From IMG/VR virus record IMGVR_UViG_3300034198_023361: a DNA stretch of 64,000 nt; one strand, written 5' to 3'. This stretch comes from an uncultured virus (IMG/VR IMGVR_UViG_3300034198_023361) (taxonomy: Duplodnaviria; Heunggongvirae; Uroviricota; Caudoviricetes). Each line of letters opens with the position of its first letter. Position 1 is the stretch's first letter. Positions 7,503 to 24,888 of this stretch are shown here, in pieces. The translations under genes were made by a program, and so were the position numbers. The notes beneath the pieces are model-generated. The model saw nothing but the letters and a program-made list of their open reading frames with translations, was not told where the DNA came from and made no database searches.

Positions 7503-7546
7503 ACCCGCCGGGCCTCTCGACGATGCTCACTCGGCGGGTCTTTTTT
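7503..7546 (+). terminator. Intrinsic terminator
   Basis: ACCCGCCGGG...CTCGGCGGGT stem followed by CTTTTTT. Confidence 0.7.
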
Positions 7547-18832: not shown

Positions 18833-19382
18833 GTTCATGACCCCTGTGATTCTGGTGTTGTTGTCGACCGTTTCTTTTGGCGGCGAGATGAACGCCCGCG
18901 GTCGTAAAGAGATGCAGGCCATCGAGGCCGTTGTGCAAGAAAACTTTCACGCGAGCAACATGAAAAGTGTTGAAGGCGTGATTGGCACGATGACGCCGAA
19001 TTTTCCTAATCAGGAACAGTTCACCGATGAGCTGAAGCAGTTCTTTGATGAGGTCGACTGCTATATGCGTGTTGTCCGTGTCGACTTTGTCGAGGCGGAC
19101 GCTCGCGGGCAAATGGCTGTGGTCAATGTCGTGCAAGAAACGTTTGCCGGCAAAGACGGTGAAGATCTGCCCTACTCCGAGTTTCGCGAACGCAGCGCCA
19201 TGCTGCCGCCGTGGGAACTTTGCGAGTTCAGGCTGATCATGCACAAAGTTCGTGGCAAATGGCTGATCCACGAAATGGGCAGCATGCCGCAGGAAGTAGA
19301 GCGTGAAGAATTGCAAGCCCGGAATGAAACCGCGGCGTGCAAGGACGGCTCGTGCCGCCTCACGAACGTTCGCGCCCGTTAA
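18822..19382 (+). CDS. Secreted NTF2/SnoaL-like protein
   Basis: Signal peptide; 'AIEAVVQENFHASN..SVEGVIGTM' ... 'KVRGKWLI'; C-terminal CKDGSC. Confidence 0.65.
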   Translation: MMIKFMTPVILVLLSTVSFGGEMNARGRKEMQAIEAVVQENFHASNMKSVEGVIGTMTPNFPNQEQFTDELKQFFDEVDCYMRVVRVDFVEADARGQMAVVNVVQETFAGKDGEDLPYSEFRERSAMLPPWELCEFRLIMHKVRGKWLIHEMGSMPQEVEREELQARNETAACKDGSCRLTNVRAR

Positions 19383-19388
19383 GCGCGT

Positions 19389-19461
19389 GGGCCTTTAGCT
19401 CAGTTGGTAGAGCAAGGGACTTTTAATCCTTTGGTCGTGGGTTCGAATCCCACAGGGCCCA
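19389..19461 (+). tRNA. tRNA-Lys(UUU)
   Basis: Acceptor GGGCCTT/AGGGCCC, anticodon loop CTTTTAA, T-loop TTCGAAT; no encoded CCA. Confidence 0.95.
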
Positions 19462-19510
19462 TTGTTCGATTGGTTGTTCAAAGGTCATTTCCAAACAAGG
19501 AGGTTTTGAA

Positions 19511-19744
19511 ATGAGTGGTATCGAAATCAAGGGAAATCTGATTGGTTTGGTGACGGCGTTGCTGATGCTTGCGGGAATCGCGTGGCAGAGCTATGAAGAG
19601 TATCAGAAGGCGCACCCAGCGCCGACAACGCTGCAACCGCCATCTCCGTCTGTGACTCCCGTCTACTGGAACGACGGGCAGCGGTGGTGGTGCCAGATTG
19701 GCGACAAGAGGTACGTCTGGAATGGTGACACAAGAACGAGATGA
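19511..19744 (+). CDS. Small single-TM protein
   Basis: RBS AAGGAGG; TM helix, Pro-rich linker, W-rich end. Confidence 0.7.
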   Translation: MSGIEIKGNLIGLVTALLMLAGIAWQSYEEYQKAHPAPTTLQPPSPSVTPVYWNDGQRWWCQIGDKRYVWNGDTRTR

Positions 19745-20018
19745 CAACGAAGCTACGGCCGATTACTACAACGAGCGTATCGGTATCGAGTTGGAAAAGA
19801 TGCTTGCGATAACGCAGGATCTCGCCGGCAAAATCGGCGCCGGGCAGTCGATGACGTACGGGCAGTTTCTGACTCTGGAACATGCGTTTGAATACGTTCG
19901 CGATGCGATGCACAGCCGAGACAAGTTCGGCACGCACAGCCGTACTGGTAAAGATAGATTTCGGCACATCGCACATCCCGAGCAGTATCCGGCTCCGCAA
20001 GAGCCTGCGCTGGTCTAG
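19722..20018 (+). CDS. Hypothetical protein
   Basis: GAGG RBS; fills the space to tRNA-Leu. Confidence 0.6.
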   Translation: MVTQERDDNEATADYYNERIGIELEKMLAITQDLAGKIGAGQSMTYGQFLTLEHAFEYVRDAMHSRDKFGTHSRTGKDRFRHIAHPEQYPAPQEPALV

Positions 20019-20027
20019 CGGGCGGCT

Positions 20028-20113
20028 GGCTAAGTGGCGAAATCGGCAGACGCAGCGGACTTAAAATCCGCTGGGAGTAATTTCCCGTGCGGGTTCGAGT
20101 CCCGCCTTGGCCA
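20028..20113 (+). tRNA. tRNA-Leu(UAA)
   Basis: GGCTAAG/CTTGGCC acceptor, loop CTTAAAA, long variable arm. Confidence 0.95.
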
Positions 20114-20125
20114 TTGGAGGGCTGT

Positions 20126-20482
20126 ATGGGTAATCCGGTTTACAAGTCGTTGAAGTGCATTCACTGCGGTGGTCGCATCGAAGCGGTCGAGTTCAACGAC
20201 ATCGTGACGATGCGCATTGATGGAACAATGCACAAAGTTCCTATGTATCGTGTGCCGGCGAACCGATGCTTCGACTGCGGCGAAAGCTACGTGGATGGTA
20301 CGTCAGACGAGTCGATGGAATTCTGGACGCAGCAGTACCTCACCGGTATCGGCCGCAACAAGTGGTATCACAAGTTGCGTCGGCGCTGGCGTGCGTATTG
20401 CAATCGCTGGCGGGGCTGGTACTGGAACCGGTCTCCGTGGGCTCGTCGGCGTCAACGCCGCGAGCGAGAGCGCGAGGCGTAG
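20126..20482 (+). CDS. Zinc-ribbon protein (YgiT/MqsA-N-like)
   Basis: RBS GGAGG; CIHCGG...VPANRCFDCGESY. Confidence 0.7.
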   Translation: MGNPVYKSLKCIHCGGRIEAVEFNDIVTMRIDGTMHKVPMYRVPANRCFDCGESYVDGTSDESMEFWTQQYLTGIGRNKWYHKLRRRWRAYCNRWRGWYWNRSPWARRRQRREREREA

Positions 20483-20488
20483 TCTCGC

Positions 20489-20562
20489 AGGCGCATAGCT
20501 CAATTGGTCAGAGCACCTGCTTTACATGCAGGGGGTTAGGGGTTCGAGTCCCTTTGCGCCTA
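20489..20562 (+). tRNA. tRNA-Val(UAC)
   Basis: AGGCGCA/TGCGCCT acceptor, loop TTTACAT. Confidence 0.93.
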
Positions 20563-20688
20563 TTTATCCGGGTTACTCTTCAATCCCGTTGATATCAAAA
20601 CAATCATCGTCTTTACGCGGCGATGATTTCTATGGGAAACAGCTGCGCGTAACAGCTGTAAGTTCAGGGATGATAGAAGGAGATTCTG

Positions 20689-21063
20689 ATGAAGATCCAG
20701 TTTGTTGCCCCCAAGGGCTGCGGTTGTCGGTCGTTCATGCGGGAGATTTTTGAGCAGGTTAATGTGTATCGTCGCACGCTCGGTCTGCGGGCCATGGCGA
20801 TGAACACGTTCTACAAAGTTCGCCAGCATGCGGCCGAAGTGTGGCTCGACGAGCGTGTCAAGAAGTATCCCAAGAGCCCTGATAAGTGGAAGGGTAATCC
20901 GTTTCTGGCAAACGACAAGAACGGTGGATACGTGTTCTCTCAGCGAAACTCGAACGCGCTGCTGGCTGCCGCGGTACAGTACGCATTGTGCCGTCCGCGG
21001 GGTTTGCCGGAGGTCAAGCTGCGCCGCGCTGCGGCCAAACGCCGTAAGCTCGCTGCCGCGTAA
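20689..21063 (+). CDS. Basic hypothetical protein
   Basis: RBS AAGGAG; 124 aa. Confidence 0.7.
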   Translation: MKIQFVAPKGCGCRSFMREIFEQVNVYRRTLGLRAMAMNTFYKVRQHAAEVWLDERVKKYPKSPDKWKGNPFLANDKNGGYVFSQRNSNALLAAAVQYALCRPRGLPEVKLRRAAAKRRKLAAA

Positions 21064-21087
21064 AGACGGGAAACCGTCTGTTTGTGT

Positions 21088-21111
21088 AACCCGGTGTGGG
21101 GTTCTTTTTTT
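21088..21111 (+). terminator. Intrinsic terminator
   Basis: AACCC-GGTGTG-GGGTT then C and T7; preceded by GACGG-GAAA-CCGTC hairpin. Confidence 0.55.
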
Positions 21112-21151
21112 GACGTCGCGCACACCCGCGACAGGATCACGGAGGATCGTT

Positions 21152-21514
21152 ATGTTTCGTTTTCTCATGTGTGTAGCAGTCGTTCTTTCGATGGTCAGCG
21201 TTGCGCATGCTGCCCCGCGACATAGGCGCCACTACACGCCGTCTCAGGTTCCGGCTCCCGTCAAGTCCTACTCGTACGCTACGTCTTATGCCGGGCACAC
21301 CGGTTCGGCGCAGGGCGTAGCCGAGCTTCAGGCCAGCAATGGCCGCATGGGACATCACGGCGGGAACTCAGGCTACGAAGGCGTCGGCACGGGCTCGACG
21401 CCTGAACAGGCGCTGGGCAACTGCTGCTACAGCAACAGCGGCAGAGCGGTCGTAGACCAAGGGGTCGCGCGTGGCAGGGATGGCCGGTGGTATGCGTGCA
21501 AACGCTACCGCTGA
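21152..21514 (+). CDS. Secreted small CAP/SCP-like protein
   Basis: RBS GGAGG; signal peptide; MGHHGG..YEGVG..STPEQALGNCCY...GVARG..GRWYACKRY. Confidence 0.7.
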   Translation: MFRFLMCVAVVLSMVSVAHAAPRHRRHYTPSQVPAPVKSYSYATSYAGHTGSAQGVAELQASNGRMGHHGGNSGYEGVGTGSTPEQALGNCCYSNSGRAVVDQGVARGRDGRWYACKRYR

Positions 21515-21577
21515 AGCGTAGACTCGCTGACGGTGGGGCGCTGGAGGTAGCCCAAGCCTCTGGCGCCCCACCCACGC

Positions 21578-21648
21578 GGGCCGCGGAAACTGGTAGGCAA
21601 GCGAGTCTTATTAACTCGCGATGCAAGGTTCGATTCCTTGGCGGCCCA
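21578..21648 (+). tRNA. Atypical tRNA-like gene, anticodon UAU (Ile), no pairable D-stem
   Basis: Acceptor GGGCCGC/GCGGCCC+A, 6-bp anticodon stem GCGAGT/ACTCGC with loop CTTATTA, T-arm CAAGG-TTCGATT-CCTTG. Confidence 0.7.
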
Positions 21649-21684
21649 TTGGGTTTTGTTATCTTTACACGAAGGAGCAGCGAG

Positions 21685-21870
21685 ATGACACTGGAACGAG
21701 CAGCCGAATTGATATCTAAGTTGCGCGAAACGCAGAACCCCACAGACTTGTCGCCCTGCGATCTGTTTGCTCACTTTGCAGATTTCTTCAAACTCAAAGA
21801 GAAGCAGCTGATCACGTTCGCGCAAATGTGCGGTTTTCTTATCGCGTTAAACGTCGAAAAGGTAGACTGA
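21685..21870 (+). CDS. Small hypothetical protein
   Basis: RBS AAGGAG before ATG 21685. Confidence 0.65.
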   Translation: MTLERAAELISKLRETQNPTDLSPCDLFAHFADFFKLKEKQLITFAQMCGFLIALNVEKVD

Positions 21871-21879
21871 GACGACACT

Positions 21880-21952
21880 GGCCCCATCGTCTAGTGGCCT
21901 AGGACAACGGATTTTCGTTCCGTTTACCGGGGTTCGAATCCCCGTGGGGTCA
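21880..21952 (+). tRNA. tRNA-Glu(UUC)
   Basis: GGCCCCA/TGGGGTC acceptor, loop TTTTCGT. Confidence 0.93.
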
Positions 21953-21992
21953 ATGGTGCGATTGTTTTTAACACCACGCGAAGGAGGAAAAC

Positions 21993-22229
21993 ATGATTGC
22001 AGCGTTGGGTTTTGTTCCGGGCAATGCCGGTTTTGGCGTCGCTATCGTCGAGAGCGACGACATGGACGCTGCAAAGACGGCGTTGTCCGATTGTCATGGC
22101 CGGGATGATTTCGTGCGCGTCATTATCCTCAAGAGCGAAACGCCGATCGAAATCGCCGGCAATTGGTCTGCGCCGTTTGATTTGAAGAACGCGACGCTGG
22201 ATCAAGTCGCAACGCTCATGGGGTCATAG
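21993..22229 (+). CDS. Small hypothetical protein
   Basis: RBS AAGGAGG. Confidence 0.7.
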   Translation: MIAALGFVPGNAGFGVAIVESDDMDAAKTALSDCHGRDDFVRVIILKSETPIEIAGNWSAPFDLKNATLDQVATLMGS

Positions 22230-22252
22230 CTTTTTTAACAGAAAGGAACCAA

Positions 22253-22429
22253 ATGGTTTTTCATTTGACGCCGGCGCAAGTGTTGGCGATTTTAGATTGC
22301 ACGACTTGGACGCGTCGAGCGATCGCGGACGCCGAGAGCGTAACTCCCGAGAACCGCCAGAAGTGTCTGGAGGCAGTCGAAAATCTGAGAGCCGAAGTTG
22401 AAAAACAGCTTCGGCCGCAGCTCGTCTAG
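22253..22429 (+). CDS. 58-aa protein not in the ORF track (MVFHLTPAQVLAILD...)
   Basis: RBS GAAAGGA, ATG 22253, TAG 22427-22429. Confidence 0.65.
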   Translation: MVFHLTPAQVLAILDCTTWTRRAIADAESVTPENRQKCLEAVENLRAEVEKQLRPQLV

Positions 22430-22440
22430 TACAAACAAAT

Positions 22441-22505
22441 TGTGGTGCCAACGCATTCGCTAGGTGTTGGGCTTGGTTAAATGGTTGCCCTATCAACCAG
22501 CCACA
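22441..22505 (+). ncRNA. ~62-nt structured RNA, copy 1
   Basis: Closing stem TGTGGT/GCCACA around hairpins CCAACGC/GTGTTGG and TGGTTG/CAACCA; duplicated at 22786-22850. Confidence 0.6.
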
Positions 22506-22511
22506 TCTTTC

Positions 22512-22593
22512 AACTCGGTGGCGGAACTGGCAGACGCGCTGGATTTAGGTTCCAGTGCCGAAAGGCTTGCGGGTTCGACTCCCGCCCGGGTTA
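22512..22593 (+). tRNA. tRNA-Leu(UAG)
   Basis: AACTCGG/CCGGGTT acceptor, loop TTTAGGT, variable arm GCC-GAAA-GGC. Confidence 0.93.
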
Positions 22594-22595
22594 TT

Positions 22596-22779
22596 GTCTC
22601 GGCAGCGTGTGTACAGCGCTGCGAAATGCGGGGGGAAGTTATGCTCCTTAATGTTGTGGGAGGGTAGTAGCAATACTGTTATGCGGCTAGGTAAGCACTT
22701 ATTTGGGTAACATCACTCGTTACCGTGCAAGCCCCGCAAACCCAGTATGCCCGTTAGCACCACATCCCTGAGTCGAGAC
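22596..22779 (+). ncRNA. ~184-nt structured RNA of unknown class
   Basis: Closing stem GTCTCGGC/GTCGAGAC; internal TGCGGGG/CCCCGCA, GCAA-tetraloop hairpin, GGTAAC/GTTACC. Confidence 0.55.
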
Positions 22780-22785
22780 TTTCGC

Positions 22786-22850
22786 GATGGTGCCAACGCA
22801 TTCGCTAGGTGTTGGGCTTGGGTAAATGGTTGCCTTCTCAACCAGCCATT
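22786..22850 (+). ncRNA. ~62-nt structured RNA, copy 2
   Basis: Near-identical to 22441-22505 with a compensatory change in the closing stem (GATGG/CCATT). Confidence 0.6.
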
Positions 22851-22908
22851 CAATTCAAAATTAGGTCCGCACTGGTATCGACTGTTTTATTTCTTTTATG
22901 AGGACATC

Positions 22909-23094
22909 ATGACTGTTGTAGAATACGCTGAAACGCTCGGTAACAATTGTCGCGTGCTGAAAATGAACGCCGAGCAGGCCGCGACCATGGCGGAAGCGGC
23001 AATTGCTGACGAGCATTTTGATGACTTCTGGCACGGTTACTACTATGGCCGCGCTTACGAAATAACGCCGCTTCCTGCGGTAATAACTTCGTAA
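22909..23094 (+). CDS. Small hypothetical protein
   Basis: RBS GAGGA; MTVVEYAETLG...FWHGYYYG. Confidence 0.6.
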   Translation: MTVVEYAETLGNNCRVLKMNAEQAATMAEAAIADEHFDDFWHGYYYGRAYEITPLPAVITS

Positions 23095-23099
23095 AAACC

Positions 23100-23443
23100 G
23101 GGGGCGTACTGGTATCGACAGGATAAGGAAGGTTAGGACTGCGTGTCGTGGTTGATCGGTTGGCCACGTTAAAAGCCGATTACGTTTCTAGCTGGCGCTT
23201 TTGCACCGGCCCTCGCTGCCTAGTTTTAGGCCAGCGGGTGAGGCGACCTGAGCCTTATTGCCCAATCAGGTTGACGCCGATAATCGGCTGATCTGGCCCA
23301 GCAAGAAAGGGCAAGATGGTGGTAGCCCACCTGACGCCGATAATCGGCTAACTTTGGCAGGAGTGTAAACAACAACTGCCTACACACGTAGACGTTCTTT
23401 CTGGAGCTATCTCTGGACGCGGGTTCGATTCCCGCCGCCTCCA
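23100..23443 (+). ncRNA. ssrA: tmRNA; predicted tag (A)GAFAPALAA*
   Basis: 5' GGGGGCG..GGTATCGAC, 3' GCGGGTTCGATTCCCGCCGCCTCCA, G3:U70 pair; resume context TAGCT-GGC at 23194, TAG at 23221. Confidence 0.93.
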
Positions 23444-23450
23444 TAAACAA

Positions 23451-23726
23451 CGGGGATGAAGGGATAATGCTGCGTCGGTAACAGCCGATTGCAGGTCCCG
23501 GGAAACTAGGGTGGATTGGTATGCCCGAGCCCAAAGTCCTATATCCAGCGCCAGCTAGCATACCTGAGCGCACCGTTGTCTAACCGGGTACTCCTTACCA
23601 TCGGATACCGCTGCGGGAATCTCGTGGCGTGCTGCCGACGTGGAGGGGTTCCAAGAAGAGCTGCAGCTCGTCTTGGGTTATAGGGTTGGGGGCGTAAATC
23701 GACCCGCCCGGTTTTTCTTTTTTTTT
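23451..23726 (+). ncRNA. ~260-nt structured RNA directly after tmRNA, ending in a T-run
   Basis: Multiple stems (CTGCGTCGGT/GCCGATTGCAG, GGTATGC/GCATACC, GCTGCGGG/CTCGTGGC, CCAAGA/TCTTGG); no credible ORF. Confidence 0.5.
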
Positions 23727-23740
23727 GAAAGGCACATCTG

Positions 23741-23986
23741 TTGAAAATCGGCGATCGCATCAAATTGCTGGCCCCCATGACAAACCCGGACTCAAAAACA
23801 ATTCCGGTTGAAGAGGGCATGCCCGCAGGATTAAAAGGGACAATTGTGTATCTCTCGCTGGACGGTCCAGCAGAATGGCACCAAATCGGCGTTAAGTGGG
23901 ACAACGGTCGAACGTTAAACATTCTGCCCAGCGTTGATAAATTTGTCGTCTGTAAGCCACAGGAGTTGACCAATGTTGCTGAATGA
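23741..23986 (+). CDS. DUF4314-like protein
   Basis: GDRIKL..M..P.....G.KGTI......QIGVKWDNGRTLNILP.VDKF. Confidence 0.7.
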   Translation: MKIGDRIKLLAPMTNPDSKTIPVEEGMPAGLKGTIVYLSLDGPAEWHQIGVKWDNGRTLNILPSVDKFVVCKPQELTNVAE

Positions 23987-24263
23987 AAAAACAGCCACGC
24001 TTGATCACTTTGGGCATTGCCCGGAGTGTGAGGCTGATTGGTGTGCAGGAGATATCTTTACGGTCTTGCGCGGGCAGGACTGGTGCAAAGACAAGAGCGA
24101 CGAAGACCTGCGTGAATACATCGCGCAGTGCTATTCGCCGCCTTACAAGTTCAGCCGGCTGATCGGCGTCCAGCTACCGATCAGCCACCCCAAGCACTAC
24201 GACGGCGTGTCGTATTGGGAATGCCCGAATTGCCAGCATCAGTGGCAAAGGTTTAACGATTAG
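23973..24263 (+). CDS. Zinc-binding hypothetical protein
   Basis: CPEC...YDGVSYWECPNC. Confidence 0.7.
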   Translation: MLLNEKTATLDHFGHCPECEADWCAGDIFTVLRGQDWCKDKSDEDLREYIAQCYSPPYKFSRLIGVQLPISHPKHYDGVSYWECPNCQHQWQRFND

Positions 24264-24273
24264 AAAGGACGCT

Positions 24274-24888
24274 ATGAAGGTTTACATCGGTAAGTCTCCC
24301 AAGTGGTGGGGGCCGTATCAGATTGCTGACCTGTTGCAGTGGGTTGGCGTCTCTGAAGACCGCTGCTACAAGATCGGCGAGTGGTTAAACAACACGCGGT
24401 TTGGCGAGTTCTGCGAGTGGTTTCACGGTCGGTTCCGCAAGCAGAAGGTTGTCGTCAAGCTGCACTACTACGACACGTGGAGCGTCGATAGCACCTTGGC
24501 GCCGATCATCCTTCCCTTGCTCAAGCAGCTAAAGGCGACCCAGCACGGGTATCCCTTTACTGATGACGAGGATGTACCGGAAGAGCTTCGGTCAAGCGCT
24601 GCGCCGGCGCTGACTGAAGAAGAGAAGAATTGCAGCGCCCCTGACCAGAACCATGAAAAGCGTTGGGAGTGGATCATAGGTGAGATGATCTGGGCGTTCG
24701 AGCAGTTGAACGACCCGGATCATGACGATCAGTTCTGGCAGGGTCGGGACGAGTTGGCGGATGTAGATAACATCACCGAGCACATGAAGCGGGTGAAGTG
24801 CGATTTCGATGGATTGAAAGCACACGAGGAGCGTATCCGCCGTGGAACGACTCTGTTCGGTAAGTACTACCAAGCCCTGTGGGATTAA
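24274..24888 (+). CDS. Conserved myophage hypothetical protein
   Basis: YDTWSVDSTLA.IILPLLKQL...HG.P...RWEWI..EMIWAFE...LFGKYY..LWD; RBS GAAAGGA. Confidence 0.8.
   Translation: MKVYIGKSPKWWGPYQIADLLQWVGVSEDRCYKIGEWLNNTRFGEFCEWFHGRFRKQKVVVKLHYYDTWSVDSTLAPIILPLLKQLKATQHGYPFTDDEDVPEELRSSAAPALTEEEKNCSAPDQNHEKRWEWIIGEMIWAFEQLNDPDHDDQFWQGRDELADVDNITEHMKRVKCDFDGLKAHEERIRRGTTLFGKYYQALWD

Follow-up and report, generated by a model that had tools for sequence, protein, structure and literature searches.

The transfer RNA (tRNA) array of an uncultured phage of the Caudoviricetes (IMG/VR record IMGVR_UViG_3300034198_023361) carries two copies of a small structured RNA element. With their closing stems, the copies are located at positions 22441-22505 and 22786-22850, on the plus strand of the 64,000-nucleotide (nt) stretch that was analysed as a whole and is hereafter called the window. 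Each repeat is an intact member of a family of small phage RNAs that appears to be undescribed; the novelty of the family rests on Rfam 15, on the GenBank phage collection and on keyword searches of the literature. The element is a conserved, strand-specific, pseudoknotted three-way-junction RNA gene, present in single copy in large phages and sited where tRNA-type processing or terminators set ends. Its core is about 60 nt long, and the RNA reaches 65-85 nt with the closing stem. From the comparisons described below, we favour a free small RNA that would bind a protein or a small ligand, as a decoy, a sponge or a regulator, rather than a switch for one neighbouring gene. We give this reading a probability slightly below one half (about 0.45).

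Two near-identical copies in the window

A repeat search of the window identified a direct repeat of 61 nt (22443-22503 and 22788-22848), with 58/61 identical positions (95%). Its 33-nt core occurs exactly twice in the 64 kb and in none of 100 shuffles. Element position p corresponds to window position 22442+p in copy 1 and 22787+p in copy 2. When a covariance model of the family is run on the window, only the two copies are returned, at 84.1 bits (copy 1, match 22435-22511) and 79.9 bits (copy 2), and the third-ranked score is 9.7 bits.

The two copies differ at element position 35 (T/G), in the junction, and at positions 48 (C/T) and 50 (A/C), both in the P3 loop. As the pair immediately flanking the repeat, copy 1 has G-C and copy 2 has A-T. 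Together the copies enclose tRNA-Leu(UAG) (22512-22593) and a 192-nt spacer. A sequence-only reading of this region had described two near-identical copies bracketing this tRNA and a "184-nt RNA", with differences limited to a linker base, the second loop and a compensatory G-C to A-T change in the closing stem. Apart from the length of the spacer, this description is borne out, and the compensatory change belongs to a stem that covaries across the 24 sequences of the family alignment.

A family of small phage RNAs

In IMG/VR, seven pattern scans identified members in 12 contigs, from 21 to 381 kb in length (members over loci matched, scan by scan: 6/6, 8/13, 10/10, 10/24, 9/25, 12/12 and 11/11). 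Chance matches, recognised by eye from the absence of the 3' AGCC(A) or of a complementary hairpin, were set aside. They account for 5/13, 14/24 and 16/25 of the IMG/VR loci and for 19/20 of the genome loci considered below. In metagenome contigs, a pattern describing the 3' half matched at least 120 loci, with 20 members among the 120 matches listed; the count is a lower bound (at least 20) and the family is under-sampled. For nineteen of these members the covariance model gives 50 bits or more; the remaining one, L185, was recognised by eye.

About 90 of the 120 metagenome matches listed correspond to another repeat, "class B", which we treated as unrelated: its loop comprises 4 nt, GGUGC is absent, and its scores are 21-31 bits versus at least 50 for members. 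This repeat (loci such as L074-L099) is very abundant and well conserved, spans about 130 nt or more and contains AAATGGTTGCTATGGCAACCAGCC. It shares the search pattern with the element, not the fold.

The same 3'-half pattern was searched in 185,579 prokaryotic genomes, each representing a different species. Among the 20 matching loci, a single one (L070) is a member. It lies on a 5.2-kb contig of a metagenome-assembled genome and does not differ from the phage contig L004 in either the copy or its flanks. In GenBank, 0 of 50,697 phage records match the 77-nt element (blastn, E up to 1). An Rfam scan had been suggested by the sequence-only reading; none of the 4227 models of Rfam 15 matches over 22441-22505 or 22786-22850, either at the gathering score or, in a search of 19000-24500, at E up to 10. 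Keyword searches of the literature gave no description of the motif, although an unnamed motif inside a supplement would escape them. The flanks of the element are unrelated between lineages, and exactly one copy is found in each of the four large phage records (4/4).

A covarying three-way junction with paired loops

The structure was analysed on an alignment (A3) of 24 distinct sequences from about 11 lineages, from which L100 and L185 were omitted for their long insertions in P2. Under the structure described here, 87.5% of the paired cells hold a base pair versus 74.4% in shuffled alignments. The covariation score is 0.336 versus 0.114, and 0 of 500 shuffles reach 0.336, in controls that ignore the relatedness of the sequences. 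When one strand is slid by 1-3 columns, covariation falls to 0.03-0.11. Two-sided changes are seen in 13/23 pairs. That the covariation signal is real despite relatedness is argued by the number of independent pair types and by the slide control. The fold predicted from the alignment is a "tuning-fork" three-way junction with kissing loops.

P1 closes the element. In copy 1 its 5' strand UGUGGU (22441-22446) faces GCCACA (22500-22505), as indicated by the pair counts of the alignment and by RNAalifold. The inner pairs are nearly fixed, with G2-C60 in 23/24 sequences and G3-C59 in 24/24. Further out, columns 5-11 face columns 72-78 and 5/7 pairs change on both sides: columns 9-74 have UA 17, AU 4, CG 1, GC 1 and UG 1, and columns 7-76 have UA 8, AU 7, GC 6, CG 1 and GU 1. 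The pair just outside the repeat (columns 8-75) is GC in 12 sequences, AU in 3, UA in 3 and CG in 2, and is unpaired in 4 (n=24). Two to nine extra pairs of P1 are supplied by non-homologous flanks, and the helix ranges from 3 to about 15 pairs. Beyond the core, flank pairing extends over 4.1 contiguous positions on average versus 1.2 when 5' and 3' flanks are swapped between loci, a control weakened by shared ancestry.

P2 (copy 1, 22448-22476; copy 2, 22793-22821) starts at C6-G34 (CG 22, UA 1) and varies in length. Its conserved stem pairs CCAA.GC with GCUUGG, corresponding in copy 1 to CCAA(C)GC (22448-22454) and GCUUGG (22471-22476). From lineage to lineage the inner pairs covary (CUAAACU/AGUUUGG, CCAAGG/CCUUGG, CCAACCC/GGGUUGG and UCAAUGG/CCAAUUGA), and columns 14-17 covary with columns 44-47. 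Closer to the loop, the pair C16-G27 (columns 26-39) switches between CG (16), GC (6) and AU (1). It adjoins G17.U26 (both pairs in copy 1, 22458-22459 with 22468-22469) and the loop contains an unvarying GUGUU. Two members, L100 (67-205) and L185 (279-384, minus strand), have insertions inside P2, of 60 nt and 15 nt, respectively. The insertion of L100 includes a second GGUGUU-type loop, which indicates that extra hairpins are tolerated in P2.

The loops of P2 and P3 form a pseudoknot. The P2-loop bases R20 R21 G22 pair with C46 Y47 Y48, the first three bases of the P3 loop. In copy 1, A20 G21 G22 (22462-22464) face C46 C47 C48 (22488-22490); in copy 2 the corresponding positions are 22807-22809 and 22833-22835. 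The combinations AGG/CCU, GGG/CCC, GAG/CUC and AAG/CUU are found. Columns 32-61 have AU 12, GC 9, GU 1 and other 2, columns 33-60 have GC 15, AU 8 and other 1, and columns 34-59 have GC 24. The pseudoknot is 95.8% paired and its pairs rank within the top seven covarying column pairs of an all-against-all scan.

P3 (copy 1, 22482-22499; copy 2, 22827-22844) runs from U40-A57 to G45-C52 and carries a 6-nt loop. In copy 1 its strands are UGGUUG and CAACCA, identical in 24/24 sequences. Between P2 and P3, the junction strand J2/3 (copy 1, 22477-22481) comprises a variable N35 (T in copy 1) followed by the unvarying U36 A37 A38 A39. From the alignment alone, RNAalifold recovers P1 with U4.G58, the pair C16-G27 and P3 with U40-A57. 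In this fold P1 and P3 are continuous on the 3' strand, with G5 and N35-U-A-A-A as junction strands. About 30 of the 60 bases are fixed, and at least 15 conserved bases lie outside every search pattern. GUGUU in the P2 loop and GGUGC on the 5' side are conserved and were never fixed together by any search.

The strand that is read as RNA can also be recognised. G17.U26 is a G.U pair in 23/24 sequences and U4.G58 in 24/24, and both would be mismatched on the opposite strand; the functional strand is therefore that of the tRNAs. Protein-coding conservation is excluded because the flanks are unrelated and the variation follows pairing. The earlier claim of a selected RNA structure is thus strongly supported: homologues with unrelated flanks keep their pairing through two-sided changes, the opposite of the loss of pairing that had been named as a reason to reject it.

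Several observations speak against parts of this fold or limit what can be read from it. P3 is unvarying and shows no covariation. Most search patterns prescribed P3, UAAAU and AGCC, and part of their apparent invariance is thereby built in; two scans that left P3 free gave no P3 variant in IMG/VR, a weak test over 12 carrier contigs. In inner P2, 13 of 24 rows have no pair at columns 18-43 and 15 of 24 have none at columns 19-42, because the window-type lineage uses a shifted register. Copy 1 has an A20.C48 mismatch in the loop-loop pairing, and P1 of L185 barely exceeds 3 pairs. Finally, the energy minimum of the window copies in ViennaRNA is not this fold, but one with the stem CCAACGC/GUGUUGG: with the pseudoknot uncounted, it reaches -19.9 versus -14.0 kcal/mol for the phylogenetic fold in copy 1 and -18.4 versus -12.4 kcal/mol in copy 2.

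We take the stem CCAACGC/GUGUUGG to be also the middle stem of the sequence-only reading. As read from the alignment, only 2-3 of its pairs are possible in other lineages, and we rejected it as the functional stem. It may be an alternative state in the window-type lineage. On the basis of the comparative data, we take the phylogenetic fold as the functional one. Of the three-way junction proposed earlier, the three-helix junction therefore stands and the middle stem does not, and the loop-loop pseudoknot had been missed. The functions suggested along with it, a tRNA mimic, a processing signal or a ribozyme, are hypothetical.

Relation to known structured RNAs

Purine-riboswitch "tuning-fork" aptamers have a closing stem, two parallel hairpins with paired loops and conserved bases in a three-way junction. 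The element resembles them in its three-way junction with L2-L3 loop pairing, here supported by the covarying columns 32-61 and 33-60. In contrast, it has no Rfam match and only 3 loop-loop pairs. It also has no common regulated gene or expression platform, and it sits among phage tRNA genes.

The element does not fit the hammerhead, HDV/theta or pistol ribozymes, in agreement with what had been noted by eye for their layouts: the fold, the junction strands and the absence of Rfam matches all uphold this. The hammerhead is a three-way junction with the core CUGANGA / GAAA / UH, whereas the junction strands of the element are G5, N-U-A-A-A and none, and no Rfam hammerhead model matches. Ribozymes related to that of hepatitis delta virus (HDV), including theta ribozymes, form a nested double pseudoknot and cleave at their 5' end. 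Here, a three-way junction with kissing loops is found instead, and no model of the HDV family matches at E up to 10. One pistol sequence contains a similar "GUUAAAU.GUUGC" stretch. According to the description in PMC4604425, pistol has three stems, its P1 loop forms a pseudoknot with the P2-P3 junction, and P3 is joined to P2 by a cleavage junction of strictly 2 nt (GU). As in that description, the element has a hairpin loop that pairs with a strand past the next helix, after an A-rich linker. It has no equivalent of the pistol P3 helix and no 2-nt junction, it has an extra closing stem, and no Rfam pistol model matches. A circularly permuted pistol was considered and rejected, since the required GCAA/UUGC pairing clashes with the covarying P2 and neither P3 nor the GU junction is present.

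The element also recalls tRNA-like domains, including that of transfer-messenger RNA (tmRNA): it has three arms, coaxial closing and terminal hairpins, an elbow-like loop contact and tRNA or tmRNA neighbours. It could be a three-armed tRNA mimic, in which P1 stacked on P3 would imitate the acceptor and T arms, the elbow would be represented by the loop-loop contact, and tRNA-handling enzymes or tRNA-targeting defence nucleases would recognise the RNA. The continuity of P1 and P3 on the 3' strand, as in acceptor and T stems, the closure of the fold by a loop-loop contact and the residence in tRNA arrays would suit such a mimic. However, neither ARAGORN nor the Rfam tRNA and tmRNA models see it, and the closing stem varies from 3 to about 15 pairs. 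There is no free NCCA end: in the window copies the 3' CCA is taken up by pairing within P1, and any of A, U, G or C is seen at position 61. In P3, the 6-nt loop does not contain the T-loop sequence. We consider a tRNA mimic improbable.

Surroundings of the element

The array of the window reads, on the plus strand, tRNA-Lys, Leu(UAA), Val, Glu and Leu(UAG), as identified by ARAGORN, and closes with a tmRNA. Of the 6 tRNAs that ARAGORN calls in the whole window, none coincides with either repeat. tRNA-Leu(UAG) (22512-22593, plus strand; Rfam tRNA 49.8 bits) starts 8 nt past position 61 of copy 1. No gene of the array follows the tmRNA (23100-23446, plus strand; Rfam RF00023, 121.8 bits versus a gathering score of 47). 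It is complete and phage-encoded; ARAGORN does not call it in the window, though it calls it in the related loci L001 and L004. The spacer (22594-22785, plus strand), which corresponds to the "184-nt RNA", has a predicted fold of unremarkable stability relative to shuffles (z-score -1.0). Conservation is limited to the ~70 nt at its start, which also follow tRNA-Leu(UAG) in the related phage L004, to which window 22512-22665 aligns at 80%. Contigs of four metatranscriptome runs cover only tRNA-like and tmRNA-like parts and neither copy, which is uninformative on transcription either way.

In the 11 tRNA-bearing loci, all copies (12/12) are oriented like the tRNAs. Where a tRNA or tmRNA follows closely, the gap from position 61 is 6-8 nt in 8/8 loci; the followers are tRNA-Val(UAC) in 5 loci, tRNA-Leu(UAG) in 2 and tmRNA in 1. 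In L137, a tRNA-Met lies 18 nt downstream. On the other side, an upstream tRNA ends 4, 6 and 14 nt before the element in three loci, and P1 begins 1-2 nt from the upstream tRNA in L001 and L017.

These positions bear on the main rival of the binding RNA, a new self-cleaving ribozyme that would cut adjacent tRNA-array and early transcripts, as theta ribozymes do beside phage tRNAs. The element is compact and pseudoknotted, and 15 or more of its conserved bases were left free in every search pattern. It is carried by phages, is accompanied by no constant partner gene and directly adjoins tRNA ends. Theta ribozymes demonstrate that a phage can position a small ribozyme so that its cleavage site adjoins a tRNA (PMC10879173); they too are small structured RNAs directly beside tRNA genes of uncultured phages. 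By this analogy, a role of the element in tRNA maturation is plausible. Against self-cleavage, no Rfam ribozyme model matches at E up to 10 and no cleavage-site signature can be named. Moreover, the constant gap of 6-8 nt to the next tRNA would be unneeded if the RNA cut itself. We regard a self-cleaving RNA as the most serious competitor and nevertheless as rather unlikely.

Other members are found outside tRNA spacers. In G001, a 381-kb IMG/VR record that contains L002, the element starts 7 nt past a copy of TTGTACCCTA. This 10-mer occurs 71 times in forward orientation and 4 times in reverse in G001, and 0 times for a backwards control. It is concentrated in ~50 kb (~272-323 kb), where it recurs every ~400-700 bp. 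TTGTACCCTA is probably a phage promoter, perhaps a phage-specific early one, in which case the element would be the 5' end of an early transcript in G001. Motifs resembling TTGTACCCTA also lie upstream of the element in L083, L133 and L101. A ribosome-binding site and an ATG follow P1 by 15-22 nt in L117, L132 and L152. In L219, the element lies 90 nt past an open reading frame (ORF) and directly 5' of a terminator-like hairpin with a T run. The element ends in a T run in L027 and L163, and a hairpin without a T run lies downstream of it in L100. The 11 downstream ORFs have no common Pfam or PHROG family: 3 match PHROGs of unknown function, all different, and 0 match Pfam.

Such positions could point to a cis-acting leader for the downstream sequence, which would be a riboswitch-like sensor, a processive antiterminator or a transcript-stabilising 5' structure. 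The architecture is that of tuning-fork aptamers, and the promoter-like motif 7 nt before the element of G001, the translation starts soon after P1 in L117, L132 and L152 and the hairpins that follow in L219 and L100 are in line with this role. Yet most members are followed by tRNAs and not by ORFs, the downstream genes share no family and there is no conserved expression platform. The terminator of L219 is not switchable, because its overlap with P1 barely exists. A cis-acting leader is thus distinctly unlikely in our view.

Origin of the two copies

The presence of two copies in the window can be traced to the DNA. Copy 1 and tRNA-Leu(UAG) form one block with G003, in the order Glu - element - Leu(UAG) (window 22441-22595, 80%); G003 then runs on to a small ORF and a tmRNA without a second element. 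Copy 2 and the next 34 nt (22788-22882) form one block with the "element + tmRNA start" of L001/L231 (G004 type), at 84%. Attached to copy 2 is a truncated second copy of the tmRNA 5' end (22857-22882, plus strand), a 77% repeat of 23094-23119. This block and its tmRNA fragment show that copy 2 arrived by recombination with an array where the element abuts the tmRNA. Over 64/64 nt, copy 2 is identical to the copy of G001, and nothing else aligns between the two 6-kb regions. The duplication is a DNA event and both copies are still intact members of the family. They do not work as a pair. An ORF of 61 residues (22909-23094), with no family match, lies between the two copies of the tmRNA 5' end.

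The sequence-only reading had allowed for the copies being recombination scars. Recombination indeed explains why there are two, but both have remained intact. In a stronger version of this idea, the repeats would act at the DNA level, being either scars or sites of recombination or attachment, with an incidental RNA fold. The location of the element does differ among related arrays, copy 2 has its identical counterpart in an otherwise unrelated 381-kb phage and it carries the tmRNA fragment left by recombination. On the other hand, covariation extends to the loop-loop pairing and to G.U pairs that exist on one strand only, whereas an att or attC-like site would not be expected to show such strand-dependent pairing (23/24 and 24/24). 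The outer part of P1 is built from non-homologous flanks and large phages have a single copy. Among 32 large ORFs of the window compared with PHROGs, no recombinase was found, and the sole nuclease match is an HNH endonuclease 30 kb away. This reading was already disfavoured and is very improbable.

A proposed binding RNA, possibly released by neighbouring processing

The surroundings of the element suggest how it could be produced. It would be co-transcribed on the tRNA strand, within tRNA/tmRNA or early-gene transcripts. The maturation cuts of its neighbours would then release it as an RNA of 65-85 nt, with RNase P cutting 6-8 nt downstream and the other end being set by 3' trimming of the upstream tRNA, or by a terminator. 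P1 would shield both ends of the freed RNA, and the unvarying junction and loops would form a specific binding site. The mixed contexts (tRNA spacer, 5' leader and pre-terminator) count against this proposal, as they are just as compatible with a ribozyme or with a role in cis.

By their description, T4 RNAC and RNAD offer a parallel for a free RNA of this kind, since the relevant passages of PMC3014915 present them as small non-tRNA RNAs of the phage tRNA region, with roles unknown. The likeness is by description only: no sequence match to the element exists in the 50,697 GenBank phage records, a collection in which the presence of T4 is unconfirmed.

Other features of the window

A tRNA-like gene that ARAGORN does not call is found at 21577-21650. 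Its acceptor stem is GGGCCGC/GCGGCCC, the anticodon in its loop of 7 nt is UAU (Ile, AUA codons), and its T arm is normal and its D region aberrant. It gives a weak Rfam tRNA-Sec match of 20.8 bits and is 87% identical to a stretch beside tRNA-Val in L001. A strong 16-bp hairpin (GGTGGGGCGCTGGAGG / CCTCTGGCGCCCCACC) at 21532-21572 lies directly between this gene and an ORF ending at 21514. Elsewhere, the window encodes tail-fibre, baseplate, thymidine kinase, helicase and PhoH genes. At 7504-7539, the Rfam abiF RNA motif scores 42.5 bits versus a gathering score of 37. This motif is linked to abortive-infection genes and is odd on a phage.

Implications

Comparably conserved small RNAs with a pseudoknot have often proved to be ribozymes or ligand sensors. 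The element might represent a new class of catalytic or ligand-sensing RNA in large uncultured phages: either a self-cleaving ribozyme cutting tRNA-array or early transcripts, or an aptamer or "RNA sponge" whose unvarying junction would bind a small molecule during infection. We hold this possible but, on balance, somewhat doubtful. Its fold is clear and testable, and the RNA is short enough for in vitro synthesis. In tRNA and tmRNA surroundings like these, phages are known to harbour small RNAs without an assigned role, T4 RNAC and RNAD among them. With a defined family and a covariance model, self-cleavage, binding and the idea of "passenger" RNAs excised by host tRNA-processing enzymes become testable questions.

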